Part shown: positions 7,388 to 30,145 of the stretch, piece by piece
Layout of the letters: each line of letters opens with the position of its first letter
Position numbering within the stretch: the stretch's first letter is position 1
Source of the DNA: Flavobacteriales bacterium
GTDB taxonomy: Bacteria; Bacteroidota; Bacteroidia; Flavobacteriales_F; PHOS-HE28
DNA length: 64,000 nucleotides
NCBI GenBank assembly: GCA_016700415.1
Contig: CP065018.1
Span: forward strand, 2,389,894 to 2,453,893
Reading direction: 5' to 3'
Program-made: the position numbers and the translations under genes
Notes under the pieces: model-generated
Databases searched by the model: none
Told to the model about the DNA's origin: nothing
The model's input: only the letters and a program-made list of their open reading frames with translations

Positions 7388-9169
7388 ATGTCCGCAGGCC
7401 GTCATCGATCATCCTTGTTTGCCGTTCTGGCCGTGATGCTGCTGTTCACGTTCGTCTCCGTACGTTCTTCCAAGGAAAACGCGGGCGGGATCATTGTGAG
7501 CGACGTGCATGGCTACTACGGGTACTTGCACGCGGTGTTCATCACCCACGACCTCGGCCATGAGCGCGTACGGCATGAATATGTGAACGTGACACCGAAC
7601 GGCACGCTCAACAAGTATTTCGCCGGGGAAGCTTTGCTACTGACCCCGTTCTTCCTCAGCGCCCATGCTTACGTGAAGGCGACCGGCGGCGTGGCTGACG
7701 GATTCTCTCCGCCGTACGAACGTGCTATCGCCTTTGCCGCACTGATCTATGCCCTGCTCGGGTTGCTTGCGTTCCGGGCTTTGCTGCTGCACTTGGGCAT
7801 CAGCGACCGGACCGTGGCGACCGTGCTGTTGATGTTGGGCTTCGGCACACAGCTTCTCCAGTTCACTGCCGTGCAACCGGGCTGGTCACATGTGTACTCC
7901 TTTGCGCTGTTCGAGTTTTTCCTGCTGCTCACGCAGCGCATCGCCGTGGAGGCTTCCGTTGGACGGATCATCGCTTGGGGTGTTGTGCTTGGGATGATCG
8001 TGCTGGTGAGGCCGGTGAACGGGCTTGTTCTGCTTGCGGTCCCGGTCGTGCTGGGCAAAGCCACGCCGGATCTTCTGCGCAGCTTCCGCCAGAAACCCGT
8101 TGCCACCGCGCTGATGATGCTGGCCGGTGCGTCAATAGTTGCCATCCAGCCCATCCTCTGGCACGCCCAGGTGGGAAGCTTCGTGGCATACGGCTACAAA
8201 GGGGAAGGCTTTCAATGGGGCCGGCCCGCCATCCTTCAAGTGCTCATCGGCATCCGGCGCGGCTTGTTCATCTGGACGCCCGTATTGGTCCTTGCAGCAT
8301 TCAGCGTGCCGCTGCTGTGGAAGCATGATCGCTTTCGGGCCATCGGCGCGGCGCTGTACTGGCTGGTGATCACCTATGTCATCAGTAGCTGGTGGATCTG
8401 GTATTACGGTAGCGGCTTTGGCGCACGCGTGTATGTGGAGCATTACACCGTGTTCGCGCTTCCTCTGGCCTTCATGCTGGACCGTTGGCAAGGGTGGCGG
8501 AGGATGGCGGCCATCACCTTTCTGGTATTTGCTTCTGCGCTCCAGTTGGCGCAGTGCTACCAATACAACCACGGCTTCCTGGACCGTGAATGCATGGACC
8601 GGAAGAAGTACGCGTTCAGCTTCCTGCACTTTGACGCCGACCACCACGAACGCCTCGGCGGACGCTACATGATCGCACCCTACAACCCCAACGGTATGGA
8701 CACACTGGTGCATGTCCGCTGGGACGCCGAACGCTGGGTGCGCTACTGGCATGGCAAGCCGGTCCTCTTCGATCCCGCGCCCAGCCCATGGCATGTGGTG
8801 ACCTGCGACACCACCGACGAGTTCGGTCCCAGCTTCGAGATGCCCGCCAAAGACCTGCCGACAGGGCGCGCATTGTATTTCGCATTGGGCTTTGAACGCT
8901 ACGTGTTCCATGCCGACGACACCCGGGGCATAACGGTGGTGGCCAGCGCCGAGAACGCGAAAGGCGAGATCGTCCAGTACCAGTCCTTCGCCATGGAGCC
9001 GATGCCCCCGGCCGGTGACAGCCTCTGGGAGCATATTGAATACCGGGTGCCGCTGGAGCCTTTAAGGAAAGGCGAGCGCGTCAAATTCTACTTCTGGAAC
9101 CAGGACGGGAAAAGCCGCTTTCTGGTCGACGACCTGGACATGACCGTGACTGCCGTGCGCCCGTATTGA
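7388..9169 (+). CDS. large polytopic membrane protein, possible GT-C-type glycosyltransferase
   Basis: 593 aa with ~10 predicted transmembrane helices in the N-terminal ~400 aa and a soluble ~190-aa C-terminal domain. It is divergent from galE. No recognisable catalytic motif could be confirmed by eye. Confidence 0.55.
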   Translation: MSAGRHRSSLFAVLAVMLLFTFVSVRSSKENAGGIIVSDVHGYYGYLHAVFITHDLGHERVRHEYVNVTPNGTLNKYFAGEALLLTPFFLSAHAYVKATGGVADGFSPPYERAIAFAALIYALLGLLAFRALLLHLGISDRTVATVLLMLGFGTQLLQFTAVQPGWSHVYSFALFEFFLLLTQRIAVEASVGRIIAWGVVLGMIVLVRPVNGLVLLAVPVVLGKATPDLLRSFRQKPVATALMMLAGASIVAIQPILWHAQVGSFVAYGYKGEGFQWGRPAILQVLIGIRRGLFIWTPVLVLAAFSVPLLWKHDRFRAIGAALYWLVITYVISSWWIWYYGSGFGARVYVEHYTVFALPLAFMLDRWQGWRRMAAITFLVFASALQLAQCYQYNHGFLDRECMDRKKYAFSFLHFDADHHERLGGRYMIAPYNPNGMDTLVHVRWDAERWVRYWHGKPVLFDPAPSPWHVVTCDTTDEFGPSFEMPAKDLPTGRALYFALGFERYVFHADDTRGITVVASAENAKGEIVQYQSFAMEPMPPAGDSLWEHIEYRVPLEPLRKGERVKFYFWNQDGKSRFLVDDLDMTVTAVRPY

Positions 9170-9323: not shown

Positions 9324-9968
9324 ATGGAACGACCGTTGCCGTACGACACCATCCTGCTCGACCTGGGCGGTGTGCTCATCGATGTGGACTACCATGCCGC
9401 CGCCCTCGAGTTCGAGAAGCTGGGCTTCGCGGATTTCGACAGCCTCTACAGCAAGGCCAAACAGGACCACCTCTTCGACGGCTTCGAGACGGGCGCGCTT
9501 TCCCCGGCGCAGTTCCGTGATCGGATCCGGCAACTTCACGGCTCGCCGCTCACGGACGCACAGATCGACCACTGCTGGAACGCCATGATCGGCAGCATTC
9601 CGCCGGCACGCATTGATCTTGTAAAGCGACTGAAGGAACGGTACGAAGTGCTACTGCTCAGCAACACCAACGCCATCCATGTGCCGGCCTTCGAGGCCAT
9701 CGTGGCCAGGGAGAACGGGATAACCGATTTCAAGGGGCTCTTTGTCGGCGCCTACTACAGTTGCGAACTGGGTATGCGCAAGCCGGACGCGGAGATCTTC
9801 AAGTTCGTACTGGACCAGAACTATGCGGACCCGAAACACACCTTGTTCATCGACGACAGCATCCAGCACGTGGAAGGGGCGCGGAAGGCCGGGCTGCATG
9901 CCGAGCATTTGGACCTGGCCAAGGAGGACGTGATCCAGTTGGTGGAGCGGCTCGGGCTATTTCACTGA
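9324..9968 (+). CDS. HAD-family hydrolase
   Basis: Motif I is DLGGVLID (DxG). The downstream LLSNTN and the final DD motifs (FIDDSIQHVEGARKAG) follow. Start chosen at MERPLPYDTILLDLGGVL. Confidence 0.8.
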   Translation: MERPLPYDTILLDLGGVLIDVDYHAAALEFEKLGFADFDSLYSKAKQDHLFDGFETGALSPAQFRDRIRQLHGSPLTDAQIDHCWNAMIGSIPPARIDLVKRLKERYEVLLLSNTNAIHVPAFEAIVARENGITDFKGLFVGAYYSCELGMRKPDAEIFKFVLDQNYADPKHTLFIDDSIQHVEGARKAGLHAEHLDLAKEDVIQLVERLGLFH

Positions 9969-10301
9969 ACGCTTGCCACTGCCCTTCCTAGGCTTCGGCT
10001 CCGGAAGTGCTGCGGCCACGGCGATCAGGATCCTCGGCAGCTCACGAATGGACGACCATTGGTCCTCGTCCAGCGTATAGTGCGCCTTTGCCCCCGGATA
10101 AGGCGGGCCCTGTTCACAGATGGAACGCAGGTCCTCACTCGCCGGAACGATCTTCACGAAGAGGCGATCGTCGGCGACCAGCGCGACCGTCTTCCCGTCG
10201 GCATACAGGGCATATTCACCGAACATGCTCTTGGTCGCGAAGCGATCCGGCATGCCCAAGCATTCCAACAGGAACTCAACGGACTCTTTACGGGTGGCCA
10301 T
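9957..10301 (-). CDS. TfoX N-terminal domain protein
   Basis: 114 aa: MATRKESVEFLLECL…KSMFGEYALYADGKTVALVADDRLFVKI…. This matches the TfoX_N fold signature (R/KxMFGxYxLYxDGK). Confidence 0.7.
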   Translation of the reverse strand: MATRKESVEFLLECLGMPDRFATKSMFGEYALYADGKTVALVADDRLFVKIVPASEDLRSICEQGPPYPGAKAHYTLDEDQWSSIRELPRILIAVAAALPEPKPRKGSGKRSVK

Positions 10302-10308: not shown

Positions 10309-10710
10309 TCACTTAACCTCCTGACAAAGCTCCACCAACACCCCGTTGGCGCTCTTCGGATGCACGAAGCACACCAACTTATTGTCCGCCCCGCGCTTGG
10401 GTTCGTCGTTAAGCAGAACGAACCCTTCAGCTTTCAGTCGCAGCATCTCGGCGCGGATATCGGCCACTTCGAAAGCGATATGGTGGATGCCTTCACCGCG
10501 CTTTTCAATGGCTTTGGCGATCGGGCCTTCCGCCCGGGTGCTTTCCAGCAACTCGATCTTGTTCGGCCCTACTTGGAAGAACGAGGTGATGACGCCTTCG
10601 CTGGCAACCTCCTCGCGTTTATAGCTGGGGCTTCCCAGCAAGGCGGCATAGATCTCCTCGGCCTTGGCCAGGTCTTTCACGGCGATACCGATGTGCTCAA
10701 TACGGATCAT
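10309..10710 (-). CDS. mce: methylmalonyl-CoA epimerase (glyoxalase/VOC family)
   Basis: 133 aa: MIRIEHIGIAVKDL…GEGIHHIAFEVADI…FVHPKSANGVLVEL, a typical MCE. Confidence 0.85.
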   Translation of the reverse strand: MIRIEHIGIAVKDLAKAEEIYAALLGSPSYKREEVASEGVITSFFQVGPNKIELLESTRAEGPIAKAIEKRGEGIHHIAFEVADIRAEMLRLKAEGFVLLNDEPKRGADNKLVCFVHPKSANGVLVELCQEVK

Positions 10711-10793
10711 GGTGGAAAGTTAGGCCGGACAGTTCTGCCGTTCAGCAAAAGACCCCGCCGAAGCGAGGTCCTGCATTCCGATCAAAGTCACCT

Positions 10794-11591
10794 TTATCGC
10801 TTGACGAAGGTGTCCCCCATCTTGTTGTCGTAGTTCAGGTAGTAGAGCCCGCGCTTCAGGTCGCTCACATCAACATCCGTGGAATAGCCGCGCTTCACGA
10901 TGTTGCCGAACTGGTCGTAGATCTCATAAAGGCTGCCCGCGCTGAGATGGATCTGCTCCGCCTTCTTGTCGTAGGCCCAGGTCACCACAGGAACCGAAGG
11001 GTCGGTGTAGGCCGCGTTCTCACTGAAGCGCGAACGCTTGGACATGTCGGTCTGCTTCACCCGGTAGATGTTCTCTCCGCTGTGGGGCACCACCTTGAAG
11101 GAATACGAATGTTCACCGGGGGTCCCGTTACCCATCACTTCCCCTACCCGGATCCACTTGTTCCAGCGCTTCTCTTGCACCACAAAGGGCAGCTCACCTG
11201 TCTCATTGGAGGTGGTCCACGAATAGGTGCCTTCCGTGGAAACACCCTGCTTCACGATATCAAAGGTGCTTTTCGGCTTGAGCACCTCCGGGTTCAACAC
11301 CTTGGGGGTGCAACCGTCCTTGTGCATGATCTTGATCATCACCTTGTCGCCCACCTTGAACCCGAAGTTGGCCAGATCGATCTCGAAAGCACTGGAATTG
11401 ATCTCATCGGTGGCCACCTTGTCGTTCACCGTCACCTGATAGACACAAAAGCCCACGCCAGCTTCGGAAAACGGATTTTGGACGAAGATGTTCTTGCCCT
11501 GGTAATTGCCGTCCAGCACGATGGTGCCTGCCTGCGCGAACAGACCGACGAGCAAGGCACCAAGGAGAAAGAGATGTCGAAGCTTCAGCAT
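10794..11591 (-). CDS. secreted hypothetical protein with T9SS type-A C-terminal sorting domain
   Basis: A signal peptide (MLKLRHLFLLGALLVGLFAQAG) is followed by a C-terminal ~80 aa with the Por-secretion tail pattern (…GLYYLNYDNKMGDTFVKR). Confidence 0.7.
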   Translation of the reverse strand: MLKLRHLFLLGALLVGLFAQAGTIVLDGNYQGKNIFVQNPFSEAGVGFCVYQVTVNDKVATDEINSSAFEIDLANFGFKVGDKVMIKIMHKDGCTPKVLNPEVLKPKSTFDIVKQGVSTEGTYSWTTSNETGELPFVVQEKRWNKWIRVGEVMGNGTPGEHSYSFKVVPHSGENIYRVKQTDMSKRSRFSENAAYTDPSVPVVTWAYDKKAEQIHLSAGSLYEIYDQFGNIVKRGYSTDVDVSDLKRGLYYLNYDNKMGDTFVKR

Positions 11592-11676
11592 TGCGGGTGG
11601 TGTATAGAAGGCCGAAATATACGGCAGATGTCGGGACTGCCCGCCAATTTCGGGCCATGCTATCAGCAGATAAGCG

Positions 11677-12204
11677 TCACGCTGGGGATTTTACATGCAC
11701 GGCCGTAGCCATCTTATTCACGTCTTCCAAGGTGAAAGGGGTGCCGTCATCCGCATCCTCAATGTGAAAAATGCGACCGTCCGCAGTGACCGATCGGTCG
11801 AAATGATAGAATACCAACGCGGTATCATCGGGAAATTCAGACCTGTAGATGATCAGTTCGGGCTTTTCTTCCACAATGGTGTTCTTTTTCAACAGATCGC
11901 GGTCCAGGTCGGCCTTCAAACGTTCCATGTCGGCGGGCGCTTCCGAGATCTCGATGGCAAAATGATCACCTGCCCGCACCGCCAGCTTACCGATCTCATC
12001 CTTCCAGACCAAGGTGGGCACCGGTGCCCCGGTCGGCATCTCCAGCACCAAGGGCATGTGATATTCGGCCAGGTCGACCGTAGCCGCCGCGCGGGCGCTG
12101 TCGGCCGCAGCGGCCATCTGCTTGGCGGCATCGGATTTACCGTCGCCGCAAGCGTTCATCAACAATGCCGTGCCAAGGACGGCGGAAGGGAAAAGTGCTT
12201 TCAT
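11677..12204 (-). CDS. hypothetical lipoprotein
   Basis: Internal start MKALFPSAVLGTALLMNACGDGK (lipobox). The upstream 38 codons of the track ORF are regarded as an extension. Confidence 0.5.
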   Translation of the reverse strand: MKALFPSAVLGTALLMNACGDGKSDAAKQMAAAADSARAAATVDLAEYHMPLVLEMPTGAPVPTLVWKDEIGKLAVRAGDHFAIEISEAPADMERLKADLDRDLLKKNTIVEEKPELIIYRSEFPDDTALVFYHFDRSVTADGRIFHIEDADDGTPFTLEDVNKMATAVHVKSPA

Positions 12205-12271
12205 GCGGCGAAGGTATACGCGGGTCCGGGCCTTCGAGTTCGCCCGGCCATCCGCCTTCGCTGGGCACCGG

Positions 12272-13252
12272 TCAATGCACCACCTCGAACCGCAATGGAG
12301 CCACCTCGGGGCGGTCAATTTGACGCAGGATATAGACTCCTGAATGCAAGCCGCTCACATCGATGCCGTGCCCATACTGCGATGCGGTCATTATGGACCG
12401 ACCATCAAGGCTGTGTACCATAAGCGTCCCCTTCGGAACGGGTCCATCAACATGAAGCCGGTCGCTCGCGGGATTGGGCCAGGCTTGCCATTGTACAGAC
12501 GGGATCTCATCCACGCCTAACCCTAAGAAAGGGGACATCCCATAGCTGCCAATGAACTCCACAGCACAGTCAGGCTGCACCGAGAATTTCCAATAATATC
12601 TCCCACCGCAACCAGCGGGGCAATCCCCCCAACCGTATCCGAAAGTGATCTCAATATGATCGGAATACACGGAGTCGGTGATCTGGTCTCCATCACCGGC
12701 GCTGCCACTCGCATTCGCAAAAGCCACGTCAGGCAACTGCCCGAACCGATCAGCCAAGGCAAGGGTATTGCAATTGGTACCGGTGCTGAAGGAGATCACC
12801 CTATTCGCACCTGGTGCCCAGGAGGAAAAATGGTATTCTACCACATCATACTGCTGCATAAGCCCGTTCAGAGCAGTGTTTCCAGTGGGGAGGTTGCCGG
12901 CTTCGAGCTGATGGACCCAGGCCAAGGTGGAATCCACTATAACGGATATTGTTCTCAGCGGTATGATCGGATAGATGTGCATATCCAATAGGTCCACCAC
13001 GGTATCGCGTTCCGGCGAAGTGGAGTTGTACACGGCGATCAAAGCGCCCAAGTTCGTTTGCGCCCATTCCGGGTTGATGTTCACCGAGTCCATCCATGTG
13101 CTACTGTACCGGAAGGTCTGGTCGATGGTCATACGGTCGGCATCGTCACGGTACCGCGCCAAGATCGAGTCGGGAGCTTCACAGAAATAGGGCTGGGCGA
13201 AGGAAGCCAAGTGAAGGCCGAGCAGTAGCAGGGTAATTGGAATGAGCTTCAT
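12272..13252 (-). CDS. secreted hypothetical protein with T9SS type-A C-terminal sorting domain
   Basis: A signal peptide (MKLIPITLLLLGLHLASFAQ) is followed by a C-terminal …WPNPASDRLHVDG…GLHSGVYILRQID… tail typical of T9SS CTDs. Confidence 0.7.
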   Translation of the reverse strand: MKLIPITLLLLGLHLASFAQPYFCEAPDSILARYRDDADRMTIDQTFRYSSTWMDSVNINPEWAQTNLGALIAVYNSTSPERDTVVDLLDMHIYPIIPLRTISVIVDSTLAWVHQLEAGNLPTGNTALNGLMQQYDVVEYHFSSWAPGANRVISFSTGTNCNTLALADRFGQLPDVAFANASGSAGDGDQITDSVYSDHIEITFGYGWGDCPAGCGGRYYWKFSVQPDCAVEFIGSYGMSPFLGLGVDEIPSVQWQAWPNPASDRLHVDGPVPKGTLMVHSLDGRSIMTASQYGHGIDVSGLHSGVYILRQIDRPEVAPLRFEVVH

Positions 13253-13329
13253 GGCCGTGGGTTTTGTATCCCGAAAGTAGTGGAAGCGCTTTCAGGAAAC
13301 CCTGCCGTTCCTCGTCCCGATCGTCTCGA

Positions 13330-16300
13330 TCACTTCCCCACTTCGATCCTCACCCCTTCGCTGTGCGAGGAAAACTCCGGCGCGTACATGCACATCGCCG
13401 TAGTGATGCCGTTGCTGAAGTCGCCCGCATGGGAGACGCGCAGGTCGTACTCGAAGACGTAGGTGCCGGGCCGGAGGTGGTCGAAGAAGAAGTCCGTGGC
13501 CGCATCGCGGGTGCTTTGGTAGTAGCCCAAGCCGCCTTGGTAGCGGTAGCCGCTGAGCGTTTCCGTGGGTTCCAGTCCGGCCGCGCGCAGGTCCTTCAAA
13601 TGCACGTAATCCATGGCGCGGTCGGTGCGCAGCTCGATGCGGACGGTAAGCTTATCACCGGGTTTCAGCGTACGGGCCTTGTCCAGTGCGATGAGCTTCG
13701 GACCCGCATCGGTCGGCTCGTTGAGCATCACCTGTTTCTTGACGCTGAACGGGCTTTCGGCGGAAGTGACCTTCTCCATCTGCTCGAAGTATTGCCAGTA
13801 GAGCGCTCCCCATGCGGCACGATCGGCGGTGGTGGTGATCGTCACATCGCCCATGTCGGGTTTGATGGCATCCGCGGCCCACATCTTCTGGAAGTAGCCT
13901 GTTCCGGCCTCCTGCTTTTCGGCAATGATCTTCTGCCCGCCCACGGTGATCACCGGGGCGTCCACAGGCTCCAGCCAGTTGTCTCCCGTGAGCAGCAGCG
14001 CATAGCAGGCTTCCGCCGTGGCCTTGGTGGTCTTCCAGTCGGTGGTCTGCTTCAGCTTCAGCAGGTATAGGCGCAGTTCGTTCACGCGGGCCTCGTCCTT
14101 GGCCACTTCGTGGAAAGCCTCGATCATCAGCGCGTGGGTCTCCGTGGGGAAATCCCACCAGTACCAGCCCGCGTTGAAGTTCTTCCAGTACATGCCCAAT
14201 TCCTCGCTGCGCGTGGCCCGTTCACCCAGCGACTTCATGATGAGCTGTGCCGTGGCATGATCGCCGAGGCGGTCCATGGCGAGCGCGATCATGGCCTGTT
14301 CCTGCAAGCCGAAGCTGAGCCAGGTCACGGCCAGTCGGCCCTTGTAGAACTCCACGGCTGTATTGGTGGTGCCGGTGATCGGCCAGCGTGAAAAAAAGCT
14401 GCGTGCATAGAGGTACTGCACCACGGAATGGTCGGGCGTGTACTCCATGCGCTCCGCCTTTGTGCTCCGCATTAACAACCGCTTGTAGTCAGAATCCACG
14501 TCTCTGTCCAGCCACTGTACCGCATTCTTCAACATCACCTGCGTCTGTCCGTCGGGACGGAGGTCCGCCGCGCCCAGCTTCTCCAAATGCCCGAAGCCCG
14601 ACACGATGCCCTGCGTTACCCAGCGCGACGGTTGCATGCCGGTGAACCACGGCCACGCTCCGTTGCTCAACTGTGCATCACGCAACTTTTTCAGGGCCAC
14701 GGCTTTCTCGTTGGCCATCCGCTGCATGTCGAAGAGCAAGGCGATGCGCTGCTTACTTTCCCTTTCACTACGGGCATTGAGCACCCACGGCGTTTCCGCC
14801 AGCACCACGTTCTTCAGTTCGCTGTTCTTCTCCAATTTGCTGAGGAATGCCTCCTCATTGCCTTCACCCTTCGCCGCCCATTGCACAAAGACCTGTTTGA
14901 TCGCCGGACGTTCGTCCACGATGTGCGATGCAAGGCTGTTGGCATAGAAGCGGCTGAAGACCTGCTCGCTGCATGCGTGCGGGTACTCCATCAGGTAGGG
15001 CAGCGCTTGCACGGCGTACCACGCGGGGTTGGGCGTGAACTCCAGTTTCAGGCTTTGGTTGCGCAGCGTGGAACTGGTGCTGTTCTTCAGCTTCTCCAGG
15101 GTGAAGGTCTTCGTGCCGGCCTTGCTGATCGGCAGCGGCAGGCTTTCGGTAACGAGCACGCGATCGGTGAGGATGGGCAGTGGTTTCTCCTCGCCATCGG
15201 TGAAGGAACCGGCCTTGGCACTGATCCGCACGCTGACCGCGCTCACGCCTTCCGGCACCTGGACATCCCACGCCACGGCAGCGCTCGCACCCGGTCCGGC
15301 GGTGAATGGAACGGTGTTGTTCTTCAGCCCGAAGCGATCGTTCAACGCCGCATTGGTGAAGGGGTCGAAGAGGTCCAGTGTGGCAATGCCGGTCACCGCC
15401 GCGCCTTCGATCACCGCCACTTTTGAGGTCAACGTGATCGCATCACCCTCGCGCAGGAAGCGCGGCAAATTCGGCGTCACCATCAAGGGCTTTTGCGTGA
15501 TCACTTCCTTGGTGAATTGCGCGGTCTTGAGGTCAGTGGTGTGGGTGAGCCCCATCAGCTTCCACCGGGTAAGCGCGTCCGGCATGGTGAATCGCAGGAT
15601 CACGCTGCCGTCCTTGTCGGTGAGCAGATCCGGCAGGAAGAAGGCTGTCTCGCGGAAATCCGTGCGGGTGGCGGGCGGTGGCGCATCCGCTACCGGTGGC
15701 GGCGGCGATGATGTCCCTTCATCCTTGGCGATGAGCGGCTCCTCAAGTTGTACCGTTTGGGCCTCTGTTGACTTGGCCATGGCACCTGTTACTGTCTCCT
15801 CGTTTTTGTCCATGAGCGAAATCACACCGGCGCTACGTGACGCGGTGCGATTCCTGTATCCGTAGCTCCCTTGCCATAGGTTGGCCCCGTACGTGTTCAA
15901 CTCCGGATAGATGTGGATCGTATCCGCAGGTAGTTGGAGGTTGCGCCACAGTTGGTCCCCGTTGCTCACGCCGAACGGCATGGGCTGCTCCCATCCCATG
16001 CGTGCGCTGTTCGTCGGCCATACGGACAGGTCCCATGCATGCGGAACGAAGTGGTCGAGCGAGGCATCGTACATGCCCGCGAGCAGTTGGGCGGCCACTT
16101 TCTCCCCTTTCGGGCCGGTGATCTTCAAGCGCCATTCCTCTTTCGCACCGGGCAGAAGCTTGTCGCGGAAGGTCATCCATTCCACATGCAGCTCCTTGTT
16201 GCTCCACGGCACGTTGATGTATACATCCTGGTTGTGCGAACGGCCGCGCTCCACGGAGATGAAGTGAACGGCGAAGCCGCCACGGTCCGCTTCCAGCACC

Positions 16301-19300
16301 GGTAGCTCCACGCGTTGTTGCCCGTCCTTTATCGTAAGCCAGCGCCGCACGGCGATCACGCCCTCGCGTTCCACCTCCATCAGGATGTGTGCTTCCGAAA
16401 GTGCAGAGCTCACCAACAGCACCGCCTTTTCGTCCGGCTCGGCTTTCGCTTTCACCGCTTCCACATGGAACGCTTCGTTGACAAAACCCGTGTGCTGCAC
16501 CGCCGGATCATAGACTGTCACTGCTTTCTGAACACGCACTGCATCGCCTTGAGCGTCCACGGCGCTCACTTCGATCAGGTAGCTGCCCACGTCCCAATCC
16601 GCAATTCCGGACAACACCATCGGTTTCCCATTGGCCAGCCATTCCTTCCGCTCCATCACCACGGCTTCCTTCGGCCAAGTGAGCGGATCGTTCTCATCGG
16701 CATGCTCGTCCTGCGGGAAGCGTTCCTTGAATTGTTCGGCGGTGAGCATGTGGCGGTCCGGCTGTTCCCACAACCGGTCGCGCAACGGCGTAAGCGGCGT
16801 CCGCAGCCGCGTGATGCGCACATCCATCGGCACGTCGAGCATGTTGCCGTTGAGGTCCTGCACGCTCACCACCAGGCTGTCCATGGTGGAACGGTCGAAA
16901 CCATCGCCGACGTTCAATGCGATGTCGATGCTGCGGTAGCCAACCGAAATGCTGGTACTGCTGCTTTGCGTTTCGCCGTTCACGTCGGTGATGTTGGCCT
17001 CCACGCTGAACGTGAACGTGGGATCGGCCTTGCGTGAAATGGCTGCATCGGCCTCGGCAAGAAAGCTGATGCTGAAGTTGCCGTTGGCGTCCGCTTCCGC
17101 CGTACCGCTGGCGATCTCCGTAGACCTTTCCCAGGGGATGAACGAGCGCCAATACCTGCCGCACCACCATGGCATGCGCGCTTCACGCCTTACCGTCCAA
17201 TGGACTTGCGCACCGTCCAGGGGTACGCCGGCGTAGCTCTTCGCAAGGCCATGCACGGTGGCGGTCCCGTTCAATTTCGCGACATTGACGGCCTTGGCGG
17301 TATCGCTCTTCGGAAAAAGCACCTCGAACATGGGGCGCTTGTACTCCTCCACTTGGATGTACCGGCTGCCGAACTCTTCTTGGATGCGCATGCTGCCGGT
17401 GAGCGTTCCCTGCGGCGCTGTGAACCGGCCATGGCATGCCCCGAACGCATCCGTGGTCACCGCTGCGGAATCGATCAACTGGCCGTTCACATCAAAGAAG
17501 CGGACCGTGGTCCTGTATCCTGGCTTCACCACGGTGGTCTTGCCCCGTTTCACGGAAACGATGCCCTTGAACATCACCGGTTGGCCGGGGCGATAGATGG
17601 CGCGGTCGGTGAAGAGGAAGGTGCGGAGCGTGTCGCGCACATTTCCTCTGTCGTAGTAACGGTAGTAGTAGCTGCCGGGGGTCGCAAGGCGATCTTTCCC
17701 TAAGGTGACCACCCAGCGCTGCTGTCCGGGCCGGTCATTCGGCGCGGCGACCTCGGCCATGCCTTCAGCACCCGTGATGGCTGAACCGATACTGATGTCA
17801 CGCAAGCCACCGTTCTGATAGAACTGTGAGAAGAGCTCCGCTTTGGCACCCTCCACGGGCGTACCGCTCTCGCGGTCCATCACCAGCACGGCTGGTTTGC
17901 CTTTTGCAGTGGAGCGCTGTGCCAGGGACAAGCGGGTCACCTGCACCTCTGTGATCACGATGATGCCGTTGTCATTCGGTAGTGACCTGTCCGAGGCGAT
18001 GATGCTGTAGCTGCCGATCGAGAGCGGCTCCACCGGGACATCCACTAGATGCCCATTGAGGTCACCGTCGTCCGGCAGCTCCATGTTCCATTCGCGCAGC
18101 ACGGGCAGTCCCAAGATCCGCTTCAGGTCTTCCTGGTCCCGGTATCCGCGTCGCTCATCCCGCTTTGCATCATCCTTCACGATGCGCAGCCACAGGTGTG
18201 AGGTGTTGGTGTAGCTGACGGAGACCCGGAATGGCATGTTCGGCGTTGCGGCCTCCTCCGCGTTCACCTGCAAGGATGGCTGCGTCCACTGGGCGATCAA
18301 GGCCTTGGCGCGTTTGGAGGCGAAAGGTTCCTGTTGGTGCGAGGCGATCTCGCGGCAGATGTCAACGGCGGTCTTCCTTTCCCACTTGAACGCGCTGTCC
18401 GGCGCGAGCCTTTGGTAGTTGGCGGTTTGGTCCGCATGCCATTGCGCAATGGCGAGCATCACCGCGCTTTTCTCCTCACCGGCCAAGAGCGTGGTGCTCT
18501 GTGCCTGCAGCGCCTTGAGGTAGAGGCTGTCCTTGTCCGGAAGCGTGCTGTTGGCGCGGGCGAAGGCGAGCCGGTCGAGGGTGACATCCGTGAGCGCGGC
18601 TTGGCGGCCGTCCTTGAGATGCAATGCGGTGAGCCGCTGGTAGAGCCGCAGCGCCTGCCATTCCCAAGCGGTGCTATCGCGGGTTGCGAAGCTCGCCGAG
18701 GCGAATTCGGGTGCTGATGCGAAGGCGTTCGGACCATCGAGCTTAAAGCGCCATGCCGGTTCCGCCAAGCGCGTTTCGCTGTTCTGGAAAACCTCCAGTG
18801 CCCGGCGGGCGAGCACATCAAAGAGCGTTGGCCGCAACGCGGTATCAGCATGGGCGGGCTCCAACAAGGCGCCCAATTCACCCACGGGGATCTTCGCCAA
18901 GTCTTCCGCCGGTTCCAACGATGCGATGTACTGGTCGATCACCTTTTGCATAAAGGCGACTTGGTCCCAGGTCTCCGGGTCGTCGGTGGCCTCATCCATG
19001 TTGGTGCGGTCGAGCACCTTCCAGCGGTTCTGCTGATAGTAGCCCCACCATTGATCGGCGGCCACGCTGAGCAACAGTTGCTTCAGGGGAGTTTCCGCGT
19101 TGTTCCTTGCGGAATCCAGCTTGGCGAGCACCTGCACGGCATCACCACCGGTAAAGCGCATGAACCTCGCGGAGTACATCCAGGCGCGGAACTCCGTGCG
19201 CCAGTCGTGTGCGGCGCGTGCTTCGGCCAAGATCACCTCCGTGGCTTTCAGGGCCGATGCGAACTGGCCGATATTGCTGAGCGAGTCCACGGCGGCCCAG

Positions 19301-19413
19301 CGCGGGTCGCTCTTCCCATGGGGCCTGTTGACCGCTTTCTGTGTGGAGGCGCAGCCCAGCATTACAACAAGCGCGGCGGCCGTGCCGAAAAGGATCTTGC
19401 GGGCGTGTCGCAT
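13330..19413 (-). CDS. alpha-2-macroglobulin family lipoprotein (bacterial A2M)
   Basis: ~2027 aa from internal ATG at 19413 (MRHARKILFGTAAALVVMLGCAS; lipobox). It has the MG-domain-rich architecture, a thioester-type motif (HACSEQ, CxEQ) and a C-terminal receptor-binding-like domain. Confidence 0.9.
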   Translation of the reverse strand: MRHARKILFGTAAALVVMLGCASTQKAVNRPHGKSDPRWAAVDSLSNIGQFASALKATEVILAEARAAHDWRTEFRAWMYSARFMRFTGGDAVQVLAKLDSARNNAETPLKQLLLSVAADQWWGYYQQNRWKVLDRTNMDEATDDPETWDQVAFMQKVIDQYIASLEPAEDLAKIPVGELGALLEPAHADTALRPTLFDVLARRALEVFQNSETRLAEPAWRFKLDGPNAFASAPEFASASFATRDSTAWEWQALRLYQRLTALHLKDGRQAALTDVTLDRLAFARANSTLPDKDSLYLKALQAQSTTLLAGEEKSAVMLAIAQWHADQTANYQRLAPDSAFKWERKTAVDICREIASHQQEPFASKRAKALIAQWTQPSLQVNAEEAATPNMPFRVSVSYTNTSHLWLRIVKDDAKRDERRGYRDQEDLKRILGLPVLREWNMELPDDGDLNGHLVDVPVEPLSIGSYSIIASDRSLPNDNGIIVITEVQVTRLSLAQRSTAKGKPAVLVMDRESGTPVEGAKAELFSQFYQNGGLRDISIGSAITGAEGMAEVAAPNDRPGQQRWVVTLGKDRLATPGSYYYRYYDRGNVRDTLRTFLFTDRAIYRPGQPVMFKGIVSVKRGKTTVVKPGYRTTVRFFDVNGQLIDSAAVTTDAFGACHGRFTAPQGTLTGSMRIQEEFGSRYIQVEEYKRPMFEVLFPKSDTAKAVNVAKLNGTATVHGLAKSYAGVPLDGAQVHWTVRREARMPWWCGRYWRSFIPWERSTEIASGTAEADANGNFSISFLAEADAAISRKADPTFTFSVEANITDVNGETQSSSTSISVGYRSIDIALNVGDGFDRSTMDSLVVSVQDLNGNMLDVPMDVRITRLRTPLTPLRDRLWEQPDRHMLTAEQFKERFPQDEHADENDPLTWPKEAVVMERKEWLANGKPMVLSGIADWDVGSYLIEVSAVDAQGDAVRVQKAVTVYDPAVQHTGFVNEAFHVEAVKAKAEPDEKAVLLVSSALSEAHILMEVEREGVIAVRRWLTIKDGQQRVELPVLEADRGGFAVHFISVERGRSHNQDVYINVPWSNKELHVEWMTFRDKLLPGAKEEWRLKITGPKGEKVAAQLLAGMYDASLDHFVPHAWDLSVWPTNSARMGWEQPMPFGVSNGDQLWRNLQLPADTIHIYPELNTYGANLWQGSYGYRNRTASRSAGVISLMDKNEETVTGAMAKSTEAQTVQLEEPLIAKDEGTSSPPPPVADAPPPATRTDFRETAFFLPDLLTDKDGSVILRFTMPDALTRWKLMGLTHTTDLKTAQFTKEVITQKPLMVTPNLPRFLREGDAITLTSKVAVIEGAAVTGIATLDLFDPFTNAALNDRFGLKNNTVPFTAGPGASAAVAWDVQVPEGVSAVSVRISAKAGSFTDGEEKPLPILTDRVLVTESLPLPISKAGTKTFTLEKLKNSTSSTLRNQSLKLEFTPNPAWYAVQALPYLMEYPHACSEQVFSRFYANSLASHIVDERPAIKQVFVQWAAKGEGNEEAFLSKLEKNSELKNVVLAETPWVLNARSERESKQRIALLFDMQRMANEKAVALKKLRDAQLSNGAWPWFTGMQPSRWVTQGIVSGFGHLEKLGAADLRPDGQTQVMLKNAVQWLDRDVDSDYKRLLMRSTKAERMEYTPDHSVVQYLYARSFFSRWPITGTTNTAVEFYKGRLAVTWLSFGLQEQAMIALAMDRLGDHATAQLIMKSLGERATRSEELGMYWKNFNAGWYWWDFPTETHALMIEAFHEVAKDEARVNELRLYLLKLKQTTDWKTTKATAEACYALLLTGDNWLEPVDAPVITVGGQKIIAEKQEAGTGYFQKMWAADAIKPDMGDVTITTTADRAAWGALYWQYFEQMEKVTSAESPFSVKKQVMLNEPTDAGPKLIALDKARTLKPGDKLTVRIELRTDRAMDYVHLKDLRAAGLEPTETLSGYRYQGGLGYYQSTRDAATDFFFDHLRPGTYVFEYDLRVSHAGDFSNGITTAMCMYAPEFSSHSEGVRIEVGK

Positions 19414-19613
19414 CAAGTACTGCCCCAACCGCTGGATCGGCCGGGCATCGGGCCAAAGTTCGCCATTCATGCCGGGCCGTACACCTTGAGGGGACATTGG
19501 TTCAATGTGCGTCTTTTCATTTCGGGCCGATCGGTCCGGGCAACTTGAAGCAACTTGTAGGCCGCGCAATAGGTCTTAGCTTGGGGGTCCGAAACCGAAG
19601 GTCCCCGATCACC

Positions 19614-22600
19614 GTGCGCCATCCGCTTTGCATAGCCTTCTGCCTGTTCGCCATTTCGCTGATGGCCACGCAGCCGCCTGCGGCACGGTTCACGCAGAAC
19701 AAGGGCCAATGGCCGGAACAGGTGGCCTATCGCACGTTGGTGCCGGGCGGGGCCTTGTTCGTGGAGCGGAACGCGCTCACCTATACGCTTCATTCCGGAG
19801 GCCCGATGGAGCACCATGGACATGAACATGACGGTCCGCCGGAGCCTGAGCATGCGCATGCCTTCCGCGTTTCCTTCGAAGGGACCTCGGAAGCGATCCC
19901 GTCAGGTGCTTCGGCGCAGGGCTTCTACGAGAACTTTTTCTTGGGAAACGATCCAGCGCATTGGGGCACCGGCTGCTCGGTCTATGGAGAAGTGAAGTTG
20001 AAGGAGTTGTATCCGGGCATCGACCTGCGGATGGACGGAAGCATGGGGCTGAAGTATGACTTCATCGTGGCGCCCGGAAGCGATCCGGTACAGGTGCGCT
20101 TGCGTTTCGACGGGCAGGACGGATTGTCCATAAAGGACGGGCGCTTGTTCGTGAAGACATCCGCAGGCACCGTGATCGAAGAGGCGCCCGTGGCTTACCA
20201 GGAAACAGCTTCGGGCCGAAAAGGCGTGCGCTGCTCCTACCGGCTGAACGGCTCCCACGTCACCTTCGACCTCCCGGACGGTTACGACATTCTACTTCCG
20301 TTGGTGATCGACCCAGTGCTGACCTTCGGCACATACAGCGGCAGCACAGCGAACAATTTCGGCTTCACCGCCACCTATGACGCTGGTGGTCACCTCTACG
20401 GCGGGGGTATCGTATTCAGCGCAGGTTACCCCACCACGGTGGGTGTACTGGACCCCAGCTTCAATGGAGGCACGATCGATATCGGGATCACCAAATTCTC
20501 CCCTGACGGTACCTCACAGATCTGGAGCACCTATATCGGGGGCAGCGGTAATGAGTGCCCGCACAGCTTAGTGGTGAACTCCAACAACGAGCTGTACATG
20601 ATGGGCAGCACCGGATCGGCGGATTTTCCCGCAACTGGCGGAGCCTATGACCAGACCTTCCATGGGGGGGACAACATCAGCGTCACGGCACCAACGTGGG
20701 TGGGCCAGTCCTTCGGCTATGGCTACGGACAAGCCGACGGCACGGACATCGTGCTGGCGCACTTCAGCGCGGACGCCACCTCCTTGACCGCATGCACCTA
20801 CGTGGGCGGAAGCAGCAACGACGGAGTGAACAACGTGCTCCCCTTGTCGCACAACTACGGGGACCATTTTCGCGGGGAAGTGGCCTTGGATGCCTCCGAG
20901 TGGCCCGTGGTGAGCACCTCCACCCAGAGCGCGGACATTCCCGTGAGCGCCAATGCGCCGCAGGCCGTCTTCGGCGGCGGCATCCAGGACGCCTACTTCT
21001 TCCGCATGGATCCCGCACTCACCACATTGCAGGCCACCTTCTACGGCGGTAGCGGCAACGACAGCGGCTATGGCGTGCAGTTCGATTCCAACGGCCAGGT
21101 CTTCACCACGGGCGGCACCACAAGCACCGACCTCACCATGCCCGGCACGCCCTTCCAGGCCACCAACAACGGGAGCGTAGACGGCTATGTGGCGCGTTGG
21201 AGCACCGACCTCGGCAACCTGCTTTCCGCATCCTTCCTCGGCACGTCCGCCTTTGACCAGACCTATTTCGTCCAGGTTGACAATTTCGACGACGTCTACG
21301 TAGTGGGGCAGACCCATGGCAGCTATCCCGTGTCGCCCGGCGTCTATGCCAACCCCGGCAGTTCGCAGTTCATCCAGAAATTGAGCAACGACCTCTCCAC
21401 TTCCATCTGGTCCACGGTGATCGGTTCCGGCGCGGGGAACGAGGACATCTCACCTACGGCCTTCTTGGTAAGCAACTGCGGTCAGATCTACTTCTGCGGT
21501 TGGGGTGGCACCGTGAACCATAACATGGCCGACGCCGGCGCCAGCACCACGGCGAACCTGCCGCTCACTGCGGACGCTTTCCAGACCACCACCGATGGCA
21601 GTGATTTCTACCTGATGCTGCTGGACCCCGATGCGGTCGCGTTGAACTACGCCACCTACTTCGGGGGCGGAACCAGCCCGGAACATGTGGACGGCGGAAC
21701 CTCGCGCTTTGACAAGGACGGAACGGTATATCAGGCCGTTTGTGCGGGTTGTCAAGGCAATGACGATTTCCCCACGACACCCGGAGCTTGGAGCAATACC
21801 AACAACTCTTTCTACTGCAACCTCGGCGTGTTCAAGTTCGAACTGGCCGTGGCGCACGTCACCATCGGCATCGACGGGCCCAACACCATCTGCATCCCCG
21901 GCAGCATCCAGTTCACCAACAGCAGCACCGGTGGGGACACCTATTTATGGGACTTCGGTGATGGCACCACCAGCACGGAACTCGCGCCGGCACATATCTA
22001 TACTACTGAAGGCACCTTCAACGTGAGCATGGTGTTGTCCGACAGCTATGGCTGCACGACTTCGGACTCCTCAGAGATCCAGGTCATCAGTATCGATCCC
22101 ACGGAGGCCGCGGTCGATCTCGTTCCGCCCATCTGTCCCGGTACAGGCATCCAATTGCAGGCTACCGGCGGCACCTCCTGGGCCTGGTCGCCTTCCACCG
22201 GGCTCAGCGCTGACAATATCGCGGACCCCGTGGCCACGCCAGCCAGCGACAGCACCTCCTATCAAGTGATCGCCAGCAGCGACTGCGGCATTGATACCGC
22301 CACGGTGCTCATCACCTGGCTGGACCCTGTCGGTTCCGCGGGCATGGACACGTCCGTATGCCTTGGTTCCGGCATTGCCTTGGATGCCAGCGGTGGCGGG
22401 TCCTATCTCTGGTCGCCCGCAGCGACCTTGTCCGATCCCGGCATCAGCAACCCTGTCGTTTCGCCCGTGACCGATACGCAATATGCGGTGGTCATCACCA
22501 CGCCGGAGGGATGCTCGGTGGAGGACAGTGTGCTGGTGACGGTCTTCACGGACCCGCCGCTGCCCGCATTGACGGACACGGTGATCTGTCCGGGCACATC

Positions 22601-23486
22601 GGTTCAATTGCATGCCGGCGATGCGGTTTGGTATGCTTGGCATGCAGCACCGGGCATCACCGACCTGACGATTCAAGATCCCGATGTTGCACCCTTGGCA
22701 TCTACGACCTACGTGGTTGCCATGACCAACGCCTGTGGAAGCCTTACGGATAGTGCGTTCGTCGGCATTGCCACCGTCGAGGCATTGGCTTGGCCGGACA
22801 CCCTTGTTTGCGCTGGCGCGCCTGTCACCTTGCATGCTTCCGGCGGAACGGTATACGCTTGGTCGCCCACCGGCGTGGATACCGACTCGCTCGTGCTCGA
22901 TCCCGCCGTGGCCGGTACCTATTCCGTGACGATCACCAATGCCTTGGGCTGCACGGCCAGCGCACAGGTCCAGGTGGGCCTGTACCCGGCAGCCACGGTC
23001 ACCGCAGGCTACGAGACCAGCGTCGACTTTGGGAACAGCACCGTGCTCCATGCATTCGGCATCGGCACCTTCCTCTGGTCCCCGGACTCATCGCTCAGTT
23101 GCGACACCTGCGCCTATCCCGTCGCTACGCCCCTTACCACCACCACCTATACCGTGGAGCTTACCGACATGAACGGCTGCAAGGCCACCGACCAAGTGAC
23201 GGTTTTCTTCCGGGGCACCCTGTTCGTTCCGAACACCTTCACGCCCAATGGGGACGGGGTGAACGATCAGTTCTATGCCTTGACGAGCGAAGTGTCCGAG
23301 CTACGCCTGTTGGTCTTCAACCGTTGGGGTGAACAGATCTTCAGCACGGACGAACTGGACGGTGCGTGGGACGGGACTTTCAACGGAAAGGGATCGCCGA
23401 TCGACACCTATGTGTGGCGCGTGGACTACACCGAAACGAACGGCAGCAGTCGCACGGTCTACGGGCACGTGAACCTGGTCAGGTGA
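19614..23486 (+). CDS. giant secreted adhesin-like protein with SBBP beta-propeller repeats, PKD domain and T9SS type-B (gliding-motility CHU_C) sorting domain
   Basis: In-frame GTG/ATG start precedes the signal peptide (RHPLCIAFCLFAISLMA). Repeated SBBP-like motifs (NNELYMMGSTGSADFP, DDVYVVGQT) and a PKD signature (WDFGDGTTS) are present. The C-terminal …TFTPNGDGVNDQF…FNRWGEQIF… matches the type-B sorting domain. The upstream ~90 codons of the track ORF overlap the A2M gene and are rejected. Confidence 0.8.
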   Translation: MRHPLCIAFCLFAISLMATQPPAARFTQNKGQWPEQVAYRTLVPGGALFVERNALTYTLHSGGPMEHHGHEHDGPPEPEHAHAFRVSFEGTSEAIPSGASAQGFYENFFLGNDPAHWGTGCSVYGEVKLKELYPGIDLRMDGSMGLKYDFIVAPGSDPVQVRLRFDGQDGLSIKDGRLFVKTSAGTVIEEAPVAYQETASGRKGVRCSYRLNGSHVTFDLPDGYDILLPLVIDPVLTFGTYSGSTANNFGFTATYDAGGHLYGGGIVFSAGYPTTVGVLDPSFNGGTIDIGITKFSPDGTSQIWSTYIGGSGNECPHSLVVNSNNELYMMGSTGSADFPATGGAYDQTFHGGDNISVTAPTWVGQSFGYGYGQADGTDIVLAHFSADATSLTACTYVGGSSNDGVNNVLPLSHNYGDHFRGEVALDASEWPVVSTSTQSADIPVSANAPQAVFGGGIQDAYFFRMDPALTTLQATFYGGSGNDSGYGVQFDSNGQVFTTGGTTSTDLTMPGTPFQATNNGSVDGYVARWSTDLGNLLSASFLGTSAFDQTYFVQVDNFDDVYVVGQTHGSYPVSPGVYANPGSSQFIQKLSNDLSTSIWSTVIGSGAGNEDISPTAFLVSNCGQIYFCGWGGTVNHNMADAGASTTANLPLTADAFQTTTDGSDFYLMLLDPDAVALNYATYFGGGTSPEHVDGGTSRFDKDGTVYQAVCAGCQGNDDFPTTPGAWSNTNNSFYCNLGVFKFELAVAHVTIGIDGPNTICIPGSIQFTNSSTGGDTYLWDFGDGTTSTELAPAHIYTTEGTFNVSMVLSDSYGCTTSDSSEIQVISIDPTEAAVDLVPPICPGTGIQLQATGGTSWAWSPSTGLSADNIADPVATPASDSTSYQVIASSDCGIDTATVLITWLDPVGSAGMDTSVCLGSGIALDASGGGSYLWSPAATLSDPGISNPVVSPVTDTQYAVVITTPEGCSVEDSVLVTVFTDPPLPALTDTVICPGTSVQLHAGDAVWYAWHAAPGITDLTIQDPDVAPLASTTYVVAMTNACGSLTDSAFVGIATVEALAWPDTLVCAGAPVTLHASGGTVYAWSPTGVDTDSLVLDPAVAGTYSVTITNALGCTASAQVQVGLYPAATVTAGYETSVDFGNSTVLHAFGIGTFLWSPDSSLSCDTCAYPVATPLTTTTYTVELTDMNGCKATDQVTVFFRGTLFVPNTFTPNGDGVNDQFYALTSEVSELRLLVFNRWGEQIFSTDELDGAWDGTFNGKGSPIDTYVWRVDYTETNGSSRTVYGHVNLVR

Positions 23487-24501
23487 ACGCACCGCGTTCC
23501 AAGCCCAGCCATTGCAGGGCCGCACCGCTGAGTACCAGTTCCTTCTGCTTATCGTCCCAAGGCATGGAGCGGACCAGCTGGCCCGGCTGTAGTTCGCCCA
23601 ACGGGAAGGGGTAGTCCGTGCCCAAGGCCACCTTGTCGGCGCCGCAGAGGTCCACGATGTGTTGCAGCAACGCGGGGTCATGCACCAATGAATCGAGCCA
23701 GAACTTGCCTATGTATTCGCGCGGCGGCACCGGATTGTCCACGGCGCAGAGGTCGGGCCTTACATCAAACCCGTGCTGAATGCGGGGGAAGGTACCGGGG
23801 AAGGAGCCGCCACCATGCGCGAAGGCCACACGCAACTTCGGCAGTTTTTCAAACAATCCGCTGAAGATCATGCTGGTGATCGCCAGTGTAGTCTCCATCG
23901 GCATGGCCACCAACCAAGGCATCCAATACTTGTCCGTACGCTCCTTGCCCAGCATGTCCCACGGATGCACGAACACCGCCATGCCCAATTCCTCGCAGGC
24001 TTGGAAAATGGGGAACAAACGTGGTTCGCCGAGGTTCACGTTCTCCACGTGCGTGCCGACCTGGATCCCTTTGAGGCCGATCGCCTTGCAGCGCTCCAGC
24101 TCCTTCACAGCAAGCTCGGGGTCCTGCATGGGCAAGGTGCCTAGGCCGATGAAACGCTTCGGATGCTTTTCCACGATACCCGCGATGTGGTCGTTGAGGA
24201 ACATGGCCAGGTTCAGCGTGTCCTTGGGCTTGGCCCAGTAACTGAACATCACCGGCACGGTGCTGAGCACTTGCACGTGCACCTGGTGCGTGTCGCATTC
24301 GCGCATGCGTACCTCCGGGTCCCACACGTTGGCCTCCACCTCCCGGAAGAACCGGTCGTCCTTCATCATCCGGGCGCAGCCGGGCCGGTGATGGTCCAAG
24401 TGGATGAAGCCGCCATAGCCGAAGCGACGGCCGAAGTCCGGGATGTCCTGCGGCAGGATGTGGGTGTGTATGTCAACGGACAGCAGCTCGGCCATCGGCA
24501 A
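23479..24501 (-). CDS. amidohydrolase-2 family decarboxylase, probable 2-amino-3-carboxymuconate-6-semialdehyde decarboxylase (ACMSD)
   Basis: 340 aa: MAELLSVDIHTHILPQD…HPWDMLG…FAHGGGSFP…ALGTDYPFPLGE. This is the metal-dependent ACMSD/amidohydrolase-2 signature, located 3 nt downstream of HAAO. Confidence 0.8.
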   Translation of the reverse strand: MPMAELLSVDIHTHILPQDIPDFGRRFGYGGFIHLDHHRPGCARMMKDDRFFREVEANVWDPEVRMRECDTHQVHVQVLSTVPVMFSYWAKPKDTLNLAMFLNDHIAGIVEKHPKRFIGLGTLPMQDPELAVKELERCKAIGLKGIQVGTHVENVNLGEPRLFPIFQACEELGMAVFVHPWDMLGKERTDKYWMPWLVAMPMETTLAITSMIFSGLFEKLPKLRVAFAHGGGSFPGTFPRIQHGFDVRPDLCAVDNPVPPREYIGKFWLDSLVHDPALLQHIVDLCGADKVALGTDYPFPLGELQPGQLVRSMPWDDKQKELVLSGAALQWLGLERGAFT

Positions 24502-24504
24502 CGA

Positions 24505-25035: not shown

Positions 25036-25165
25036 GGCAGTGGGATTGGATCCCCGAAAGTACGGCTTCCGATCAGGGGGCATTCACCGTACGGTGGATG
25101 ACCCCTGGGGGGATGACTTACGGAACAGGCGGAGGGCCATGGGACACGCCCTCTACCTTTGAGGC

Positions 25166-25954: not shown

Positions 25955-26049
25955 GGAGGTGGCTACTATGGGTTTTCAGAAGCCCGTTATGATCGCCCCT
26001 TTTGCTCAATGCCTCCGCCTTGCGGCGGAAGACATTGAGTGAACGCAAC

Positions 26050-26080
26050 AAGGGGCGGCCGCAAAATGCGACCGCCCCTT
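26050..26080. terminator. bidirectional stem-loop terminator between convergent genes
   Basis: AAGGGGCGG…CCGCCCCTT is a 9-bp GC-rich stem with a 13-nt loop, lying between the SDR gene end (25954) and the T9SS cargo gene end (26104). Confidence 0.5.
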
Positions 26081-26103
26081 GGCGTTAGTGGTCGAGGTTC
26101 TCC

Positions 26104-27798: not shown

Positions 27799-27891
27799 GT
27801 TGGGTGTTTTAGGTGAGTTGGGCCACAAAGATGCACGAAATGGGTTGCCGCTTGGCAAAAAAATACAGTAGCGCCAACAACCCCTGCCACT

Positions 27892-30004: not shown

Positions 30005-30145
30005 GGAAGGTTGAAAGCTACCCGATGCGCGCGCTACGGCGATGACCGGTTAACGATGTTTAACCGGATATGTGCACGGGCAAAGGAAATGAGGATGGAG
30101 CCCGGTCGGCACGCGCTGTGTGCGACCAGCTACTTTTGCACCATC

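Follow-up and report, generated by a model that had tools for sequence, protein, structure and literature searches.

Bacterial alpha-2-macroglobulins (A2Ms) have been described in two types. Type I proteins carry a CXEQ motif and are co-expressed with the penicillin-binding protein (PBP) PBP1c, whose gene, pbpC, shares an operon with that of the A2M, and type II proteins are devoid of CXEQ and are encoded in the six-gene mag operon (PMC5764988, PMC3735191). In the latter, the stability of the A2M, MagD, depends on the accessory protein MagB (PMC5764988). We analyzed a 64,000-nt stretch of a Flavobacteriales genome (contig CP065018.1), hereafter the window, that encodes a 2027-aa A2M family lipoprotein (13330..19413, (-) strand), and compared 88 A2M neighborhoods of relatives (L001-L088) by tblastn, jackhmmer and neighbor clustering. 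Eighty of these are species' loci from a genome scan (L009-L088), close relatives such as L004/L005 were fetched separately, and L001 and L002 represent the window's own genome. Neighborhoods of orthologues with 73, 66, 57, 55 and 52% A2M identity were read gene by gene. The A2M family defined here fits neither of the published types. The reading that we favor, with moderate confidence, is that of a periplasm-facing, lipid-anchored thioester protease trap that has no link to a peptidoglycan synthase and for which a small lipoprotein of PsbP/DcrB-like fold would be the functional partner in this and related Flavobacteriales lineages.

The A2M protein and its family

The open reading frame (ORF) of the A2M gene spans 13330..19569(-). 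Translation from the ATG at 19413 yields 2027 aa with the N-terminus MRHARKILFGTAAALVVMLGC, which includes a lipobox, whereas the NCBI annotation starts at 19470 and gives 2046 aa. Orthologue alignment favored the ATG at 19413, and the cysteine of the lipobox (C21) was nearly invariant among 22 orthologues. The lipoprotein signal peptide read from the sequence (19351..19413(-)) carries the lipobox MRHARKILFGTAAALVVMLG immediately before this cysteine. The protein is 100% identical to P0001, an entry named ‘alpha-2-macroglobulin family protein [Flavobacteriales bacterium]’ that was deposited from a metagenome-assembled genome (MAG) of an uncultured Flavobacteriales. Downstream of a family-specific N-terminal domain (residues 22-480, 17974..19350(-)), Pfam placed MG2 (PF01835; residues 598-678, 17380..17622(-), 5.2e1 bits, E 9e-14), the A2M domain (PF00207; residues 1256-1333, 15415..15648(-), E 9e-17) and a C-terminal bMG10 (PF17973; residues 1889-2013, 13375..13749(-), E 6e-33). 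A bMG6 match was weak, and bMG10 was not followed by a C-terminal domain (CTD) of the type IX secretion system (T9SS).

The initial annotation, which had reported a 2027-aa A2M with a lipobox and an HACSEQ motif, agrees with the Pfam annotation and with the alignment of the motif. The segment YPHACSEQ was placed at residues 1476-1484, and its CSEQ (14962..14973(-) in the translation) pairs residue for residue with the thioester motif CGEQ in TEP1, a mosquito protein that was the sole direct match in a phmmer search against the PDB. C1481, E1483 and Q1484 were invariant among the 22 orthologues, and 84 of the 85 relatives of full length have a C.EQ at the equivalent position. The region C-terminal to CSEQ was also conserved in the orthologue alignment. 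Conservation is lowest at residues 1172-1245 (15679..15900(-)), a hypervariable stretch rich in indels, with 18-23% column identity and 30-48% gaps, which directly precedes the conserved RTDFRETAFF. Bait regions in the superfamily occupy this same place, before MG7, and the stretch is accordingly described here as bait-like. Judged by its predicted domains and motifs, the gene is that of a genuine thioester-motif A2M lipoprotein, in which the thioester would be expected to form.

Scanning a single genome from each species with a sequence pattern recovered at least 596 confirmed relatives of the A2M. The best 80 of these (at least) 596, which cover nearly all of the 2027 residues, belong to several orders of Bacteroidota and to MAGs labelled Cloacimonadota, Calditrichia, Ignavibacteria, Spirochaetota and Chitinispirillaceae; some MAG labels, one of them Synechococcus, may stem from binning errors. 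Residues 22-480 matched 2329 cluster representatives (clustered at 50% identity), and in the 150 best matches the domain stood at the N-terminus, mostly of proteins of ~2000 aa. Searches of Pfam, NCBIfam and PDB sequences with this ~460-aa domain returned nothing beyond weak TPR hints. Nor did NCBIfam contain any model matching the A2M, or a phmmer search of the PDB with the A2M return any bacterial A2M structure, and literature searches for Bacteroidota A2Ms or for T9SS-linked A2Ms found nothing relevant. As delineated by these matches, the family is very large, has its center in Bacteroidota and neighboring phyla, and comprises proteins of ~2000 aa with an N-terminal domain of their own (~460 aa).

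Comparison with the described systems sets this family apart from each of them. The type I proteins (ECAM/YfhM of E. coli, Sa-A2M of Salmonella) share with it the lipoprotein signal, CXEQ, a bait-like stretch, MG domains, bMG10 and a presumed role as a periplasmic protease trap (PMC5764988). Unlike type I, the window A2M is ~400 aa longer and has the extra N-terminal domain, and its sequence relationship to ECAM is very remote, the family profile reaching E 5e-4 over ~200 residues of MG domains. Furthermore, the pbpC/PBP1c operon partner is absent here and in the loci of 80 relatives, and a PsbP-fold lipoprotein stands where the type I partner would be. The type II system (MagD of P. aeruginosa, YfaS of E. 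coli; magABCDEF) resembles the window locus in having accessory envelope proteins instead of a PBP. Yet MagD has neither CXEQ nor a lipobox (PMC3735191, PMC5764988), both of which are present in the window A2M, and the six-gene mag/yfa operon is absent. The window A2M gene instead has neighbors that encode a CTD protein, the lipoprotein of PsbP fold, a protein of beta-sandwiches and a glyoxalase; these neighbors fall outside Pfam families and thus offer no recognizable Mag accessory domains. Eukaryotic thioester-containing proteins (TEP1, A2ML1, CD109, C3/C5) provided the best PDB matches, with TEP1 aligned across MG7 and the thioester and A2ML1 and CD109 at MG2 (family profile against MG2 of A2ML1, E 6e-11). 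In contrast to these, the window A2M is a bacterial lipoprotein that ends in bMG10, has the additional N-terminal domain and lacks a receptor-binding context.

The pbpC question and the small downstream lipoprotein

Because the locus lies well inside the window, both flanks of the A2M gene are visible, and neither the 10 kb on one side nor the 44 kb on the other contains pbpC. The sole class A PBP of the window (36723..39176(-)) is 17 kb from the A2M gene. It has Transgly and Transpeptidase domains, is devoid of BiPBP_C and scores 468 bits with the PBP_1a model (TIGR02074) vs. 254 bits with PBP_1c, for which the cut-off is 494. We considered whether it was a displaced PbpC and rejected the idea, as the protein belongs to the PBP1A family and is encoded inside a conserved gldH-PSP1-holB-pgk block that is also found in L004. 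A tblastn search with a GT51/PBP query returned no match within 10 kb of the A2M gene in any of the 80 scanned species' loci, and among the separately fetched close relatives the only such case was L004/L005, where a housekeeping PBP1A lies ~6 kb upstream of the A2M gene. The absence of a PbpC partner reported in the initial annotation is therefore borne out, but not as something special to this locus, given that it holds in all 80 scanned species' loci. On this comparison of loci, the absence of a neighboring pbpC is a property of the A2M family and no quirk of the window.

The neighbor that relatives do share is a 175-aa lipoprotein (11677..12204(-); N-terminus MKALFPSAVLGTALLMNAC), which the initial annotation had treated as incidental and which turned out to be the conserved member of the locus. 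Neighbor clustering of the 88 loci identified it as the most widely shared neighbor family, every time downstream of the A2M gene and on the same strand. All 18 non-redundant loci of the query clade carry it, as does a second A2M clade, distant from the first (39% identity; L019, L020, L024, L032 and L048), where it begins 14-72 nt past the end of the A2M gene. The two genes are 5-6 kb apart in L034, L036 and L047. Searches of Pfam, NCBIfam and PDB sequences with the lipoprotein gave no match. A confident structural model predicts a PsbP/Mog1/DcrB-like fold, which is common to periplasmic lipoproteins and immunity proteins. As its identity to the proteins of this fold (DcrB, TplEi/Tli4, LpqN) is 8-14% and the likeness lies in the fold only, no function can be transferred from them.

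Some of this linkage could reflect shared ancestry of the chromosomal region. The close clade conserves a block with DAO, YecM and RseP upstream and glyoxalase, TfoX, HAD and rpoN downstream; insertions between the A2M and lipoprotein genes are tolerated, reaching 4.3 kb within the query clade and the longer distances noted above elsewhere; and the lipoprotein is missing beside most family members. All of this would be expected if the A2M acted alone, with no downstream gene, the lipoprotein included, tied to it and with a gene order simply inherited within the Flavobacteriales. We consider this explanation unlikely, because the lipoprotein is the most widespread neighbor, constant in strand and side, and because in the distant clade it abuts the A2M stop although the close-clade synteny is gone there. 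The exception is L032, which keeps the 265-aa (described below), glyoxalase and HAD genes of that synteny.

Surface lipoproteins of Bacteroidota carry after the lipidated cysteine an acidic lipoprotein export signal (LES) of the form C-X-K-(D/E)2, SDDDD or SDDFE (PMC5080379). We found no acidic export signal in the window A2M, in which the cysteine is followed by ASTQKAVN, and in the lipidated orthologues these positions are basic or polar. The small lipoprotein (C-GDGKSD) is also devoid of an acidic pair after its cysteine. Flavobacteriaceae and Bacteroidales relatives of the A2M have ordinary cleavable signal peptides of the signal-peptidase-I type. The lack of an export signal, the bMG10 end in place of a CTD and the plain leaders of relatives point to the periplasm rather than the outer surface as the site of the protein. 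These same observations speak against the outer-surface trapping suggested in the initial annotation.

The working model consistent with a periplasmic location is that of a thioester protease trap, in which a protease reaching the periplasm would cut the A2M within the hypervariable bait stretch (~residues 1172-1245). The cut would trigger a change in the shape of the A2M, and the Cys1481-Gln1484 thioester could then bind the protease covalently. By analogy with the accessory proteins of MagD, the small lipoprotein may dock, stabilize or regulate the A2M at the membrane. The domain content, the conservation of motif and gene order, the hypervariable stretch and the lack of a nearby pbpC and of surface-export signals were observed directly. 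Thioester formation, protease trapping, the interaction between the A2M and the lipoprotein, and the co-transcription of their genes are the four elements that we infer. Several points weigh against this account. The Pfam thioester domain (TED) models gave no match to the A2M even at E 5, so that its thioester domain is assigned solely on the CSEQ motif and the alignment with TEP1. The LES rule was drawn from Capnocytophaga, Bacteroides and Flavobacterium, which represent another lineage than that of this A2M. Linkage to the lipoprotein was found in 29 of the 88 loci and is missing from most Bacteroidales and Flavobacteriaceae members, so that the family as a whole does not need it, and since the broader syntenic block (DAO, YecM, glyoxalase, HAD, rpoN) holds much of this linkage, inheritance could explain part of it. 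Additionally, the neighbor-joining tree is crude, and the members of the family are known from their sequences. A broader proposal, which we advance tentatively, is that these proteins make up a type of bacterial alpha-macroglobulin of their own, the third and so far undescribed, which has retained the thioester, possesses a unique N-terminal domain and depends on neither PBP1c nor the Mag accessories, and which in part of the Flavobacteriales forms a two-lipoprotein complex with the PsbP/DcrB-fold partner, which would control its anchoring or activation.

T9SS genes and the variable slot

The A2M gene heads a string of genes on the same strand, with spacers that measured 77, 67 and 85 nt, as the 67-85 nt of the initial annotation implied, before the 326-aa, 175-aa and 265-aa genes, respectively. 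The string runs past 10794 into a glyoxalase gene (10309..10710) and then TfoX_N (9957..10301). A terminator-like hairpin (GGACCUCGC-UUCG-GCGGGGUC, followed by UUUUG) lies 3' of the 265-aa gene (10747..10771(-)); its stem is 9 bp and GC-rich, and its folding energy of -18.6 kcal/mol (z -4.1) was equalled by none of 200 shuffled sequences. The three internal spacers gave z values of -0.9, -0.2 and -1.5 against shuffled sequences, and no hairpin with a U-tract was found in them. Given that the internal spacers are free of terminators and that the hairpin and U-tract occur only after the 265-aa gene, the four genes could be read as one transcript. A sigma-70 promoter scan returned 1 site vs. 2.7 expected, the Bacteroidota promoter type being different from the sigma-70 consensus scanned, and the spacers contained no exact match to TAnnTTTG. 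A generic terminator scan (7 sites vs. 8.5 expected) overlooked the hairpin 3' of the 265-aa gene; it emerged when the sequence was folded directly.

Two of the genes in the string had been annotated as encoding proteins with T9SS type-A CTDs. The assignment stands for the 326-aa protein (12272..13252(-)), a candidate T9SS cargo that scores 25.2 bits with TIGR04183 (cut-off 23) and 25.6 bits with the Pfam family Por_Secre_tail, just below the cut-off of 27. Its signal peptide, MKLIPITLLLLGLHLASFAQ, was read from the sequence, and its N-terminal part had no matches in Pfam, NCBIfam or the PDB. The 265-aa secreted protein (10794..11591(-)) scored below threshold with both models (Por_Secre_tail, 21.3 bits, cut-off 27; TIGR04183, 15.9 bits, cut-off 23), and its CTD is suggested mainly by a fold model of three beta-sandwich domains, the last of them CTD-like. 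Highly conserved within its clade, the 265-aa protein is confined to the query clade and L032, where it accompanies the glyoxalase and HAD genes and therefore falls inside the general syntenic block; it was not found in at least 5.9 kb downstream of the A2M gene in L019, L020, L024 or L048. We regard it as a conserved neighbor whose tie to the A2M is unproven. Divergent from the A2M gene, as initially annotated, is a gene for a T9SS type-B adhesin (19614..23486(+)) of 1290 aa with DUF7948, PKD and CHU_C domains (TIGR04131, 56 bits, cut-off 35; CHU_C, E 6e-16).

The same strand, the short spacers, the lack of internal terminators and the terminator-like hairpin placed only after the 265-aa gene are the features expected if the A2M were functionally joined with the T9SS cargo and the adhesin in a module of the cell surface or secretome, with proteases trapped on the outside of the cell. 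T9SS-CTD proteins also recur near relatives of the A2M, as small CTD proteins between the A2M and lipoprotein genes in L025 and L044, and as a 2725-aa CHU_C protein upstream in L032. We nevertheless consider such a module improbable. The 326-aa gene and the adhesin gene are not conserved: an orthologue of the former was found only in L011 (53%), and the latter is restricted to the window's own genome (L001, L002), with relatives carrying Glu_synthase or YecM upstream. Elsewhere the position of the 326-aa gene is filled by unrelated toxin-antitoxin or Hcp genes, and the A2M itself has neither LES nor CTD. Furthermore, T9SS cargo genes are so numerous in these genomes, with at least five proteins of the window having a CTD-type match, that chance neighbors are to be expected, and the A2M family occurs as well in MAGs labelled Spirochaetota, Cloacimonadota and Calditrichia. 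The A2M had initially been viewed as embedded in a secretome cluster, a view that did not survive the comparison with relatives, in which the 326-aa and adhesin genes proved to be lineage-specific. On the gene content of these loci, the T9SS gene for the 326-aa protein was inserted later, the type-B adhesin is a neighbor with no relation to the A2M, and the T9SS genes around the A2M form no functional cluster with it.

The interval from the A2M stop to the lipoprotein gene (12205..13329 in the window) appears as an insertion hot spot, with equivalents in L003, L007, L012, L015, L016, L025, L037 and L044. In L003, the last 58 residues of the 326-aa protein remain as a CTD remnant beside an inserted ParE-type toxin-antitoxin pair. 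The slot contains a 1351-aa reprolysin/MAM protein in L007, ~1100-aa P-domain proteins in L012, L016 and L037, Hcp and a 703-aa protein in L015, and other small CTD proteins in L025 and L044; it is empty in L004, L006, L008 and L009. We rejected the notion that the slot proteins are a single protease family, as the metalloprotease motif is present in L007 only and the others share just the C-terminal region. This common region, of ~245 aa, is shared by the four large slot proteins encoded at L007:16264-20319, L012:16240-19665, L016:16240-19650 and L037:9437-12574, and terminates in the motif G..NDRDPIL..IGG..PT, which is repeated, and the residues EQ[LI]P. The region does not correspond to any recognized CTD of the T9SS and may serve in sorting or calcium binding as a different module.

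The cargo of the T9SS passes through the periplasm during export. A periplasmic A2M could for this reason serve mainly to guard the cell from its own secreted proteases in transit to the T9SS, and less so from foreign ones. The reprolysin metalloprotease (HEMGH) encoded directly after the A2M in relatives would fit this role, and the window itself encodes a T9SS C10 (streptopain-like) cysteine peptidase (60337..62988(-)) that has a propeptide of the Inhibitor_I69 (Spi) family and matches Por_Secre_tail strongly, a candidate endogenous protease that would cross the periplasm where the A2M sits. The adjacency of protease and A2M genes is, however, confined to one sub-lineage, and the slot proteins of L012, L016 and L037 have no recognizable protease domain; we consider it improbable that self-protection is the main role.

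Large genes also occur on the other side of the A2M in the second clade with the linked lipoprotein. L032:1733-9910(+) encodes the 2725-aa type-B protein mentioned above, with Ig_7, PKD and CHU_C domains, directly upstream of the A2M gene and on its strand, and L020 and L048 have ORFs of 2200-2470 aa upstream on the same strand. They recall the type-B protein of the window but may be there by chance, such genes being common.

Other genes of the window and meaning of the A2M family

The chromosomal surroundings of the A2M gene differ between the window and its 66% relative, L004. There, ~1.7 kb separate the A2M gene from pgk and the adjoining block of holB-PSP1-gldH-PBP1A (L004:7068-9822), whereas in the window (19614..42700) the same pgk/holB-PSP1-gldH-PBP1A block begins at ~36.7 kb, which implies that ~23 kb were inserted or rearranged here. 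This segment carries the genes for the adhesin, 3-HAO/amidohydrolase, a two-component system, an aldehyde dehydrogenase and a polyphosphate kinase. The polyphosphate kinase 1 (32834..35500(+)) has all four PPK domains and apparently carries an HD domain (residues 31-127) fused to its N-terminus, for a total of 888 aa from a provisional start. The ORF with the aldehyde dehydrogenase domain (28541..31588(+)) is 1015 aa long, and the domain covers residues 559-1011 only; the N-terminal 550 aa had no Pfam match at E<=0.001 and could be an over-extension of the ORF in GC-rich DNA or an unannotated domain. On the opposite side, just beyond the HAD gene, 7388..9169(+) encodes a conserved multi-pass membrane protein of ~590 aa without a Pfam family. 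Homologues of ~600 aa are present in L001, L007 and L008, and the gene is retained as part of the syntenic block.

What has been published on bacterial A2Ms is built on two proteobacterial types and backs the idea of a coupled module that traps the protease and repairs the wall. The present family, which numbers thousands of clusters, keeps the thioester motif with no link to pbpC in the loci examined, which indicates that this coupling is not general. For the window locus the practical message is a negative one, that the T9SS genes around its A2M gene are not to be read as a functional cluster. The family also offers new experimental handles in its uncharacterized N-terminal domain and its small lipoprotein partner.

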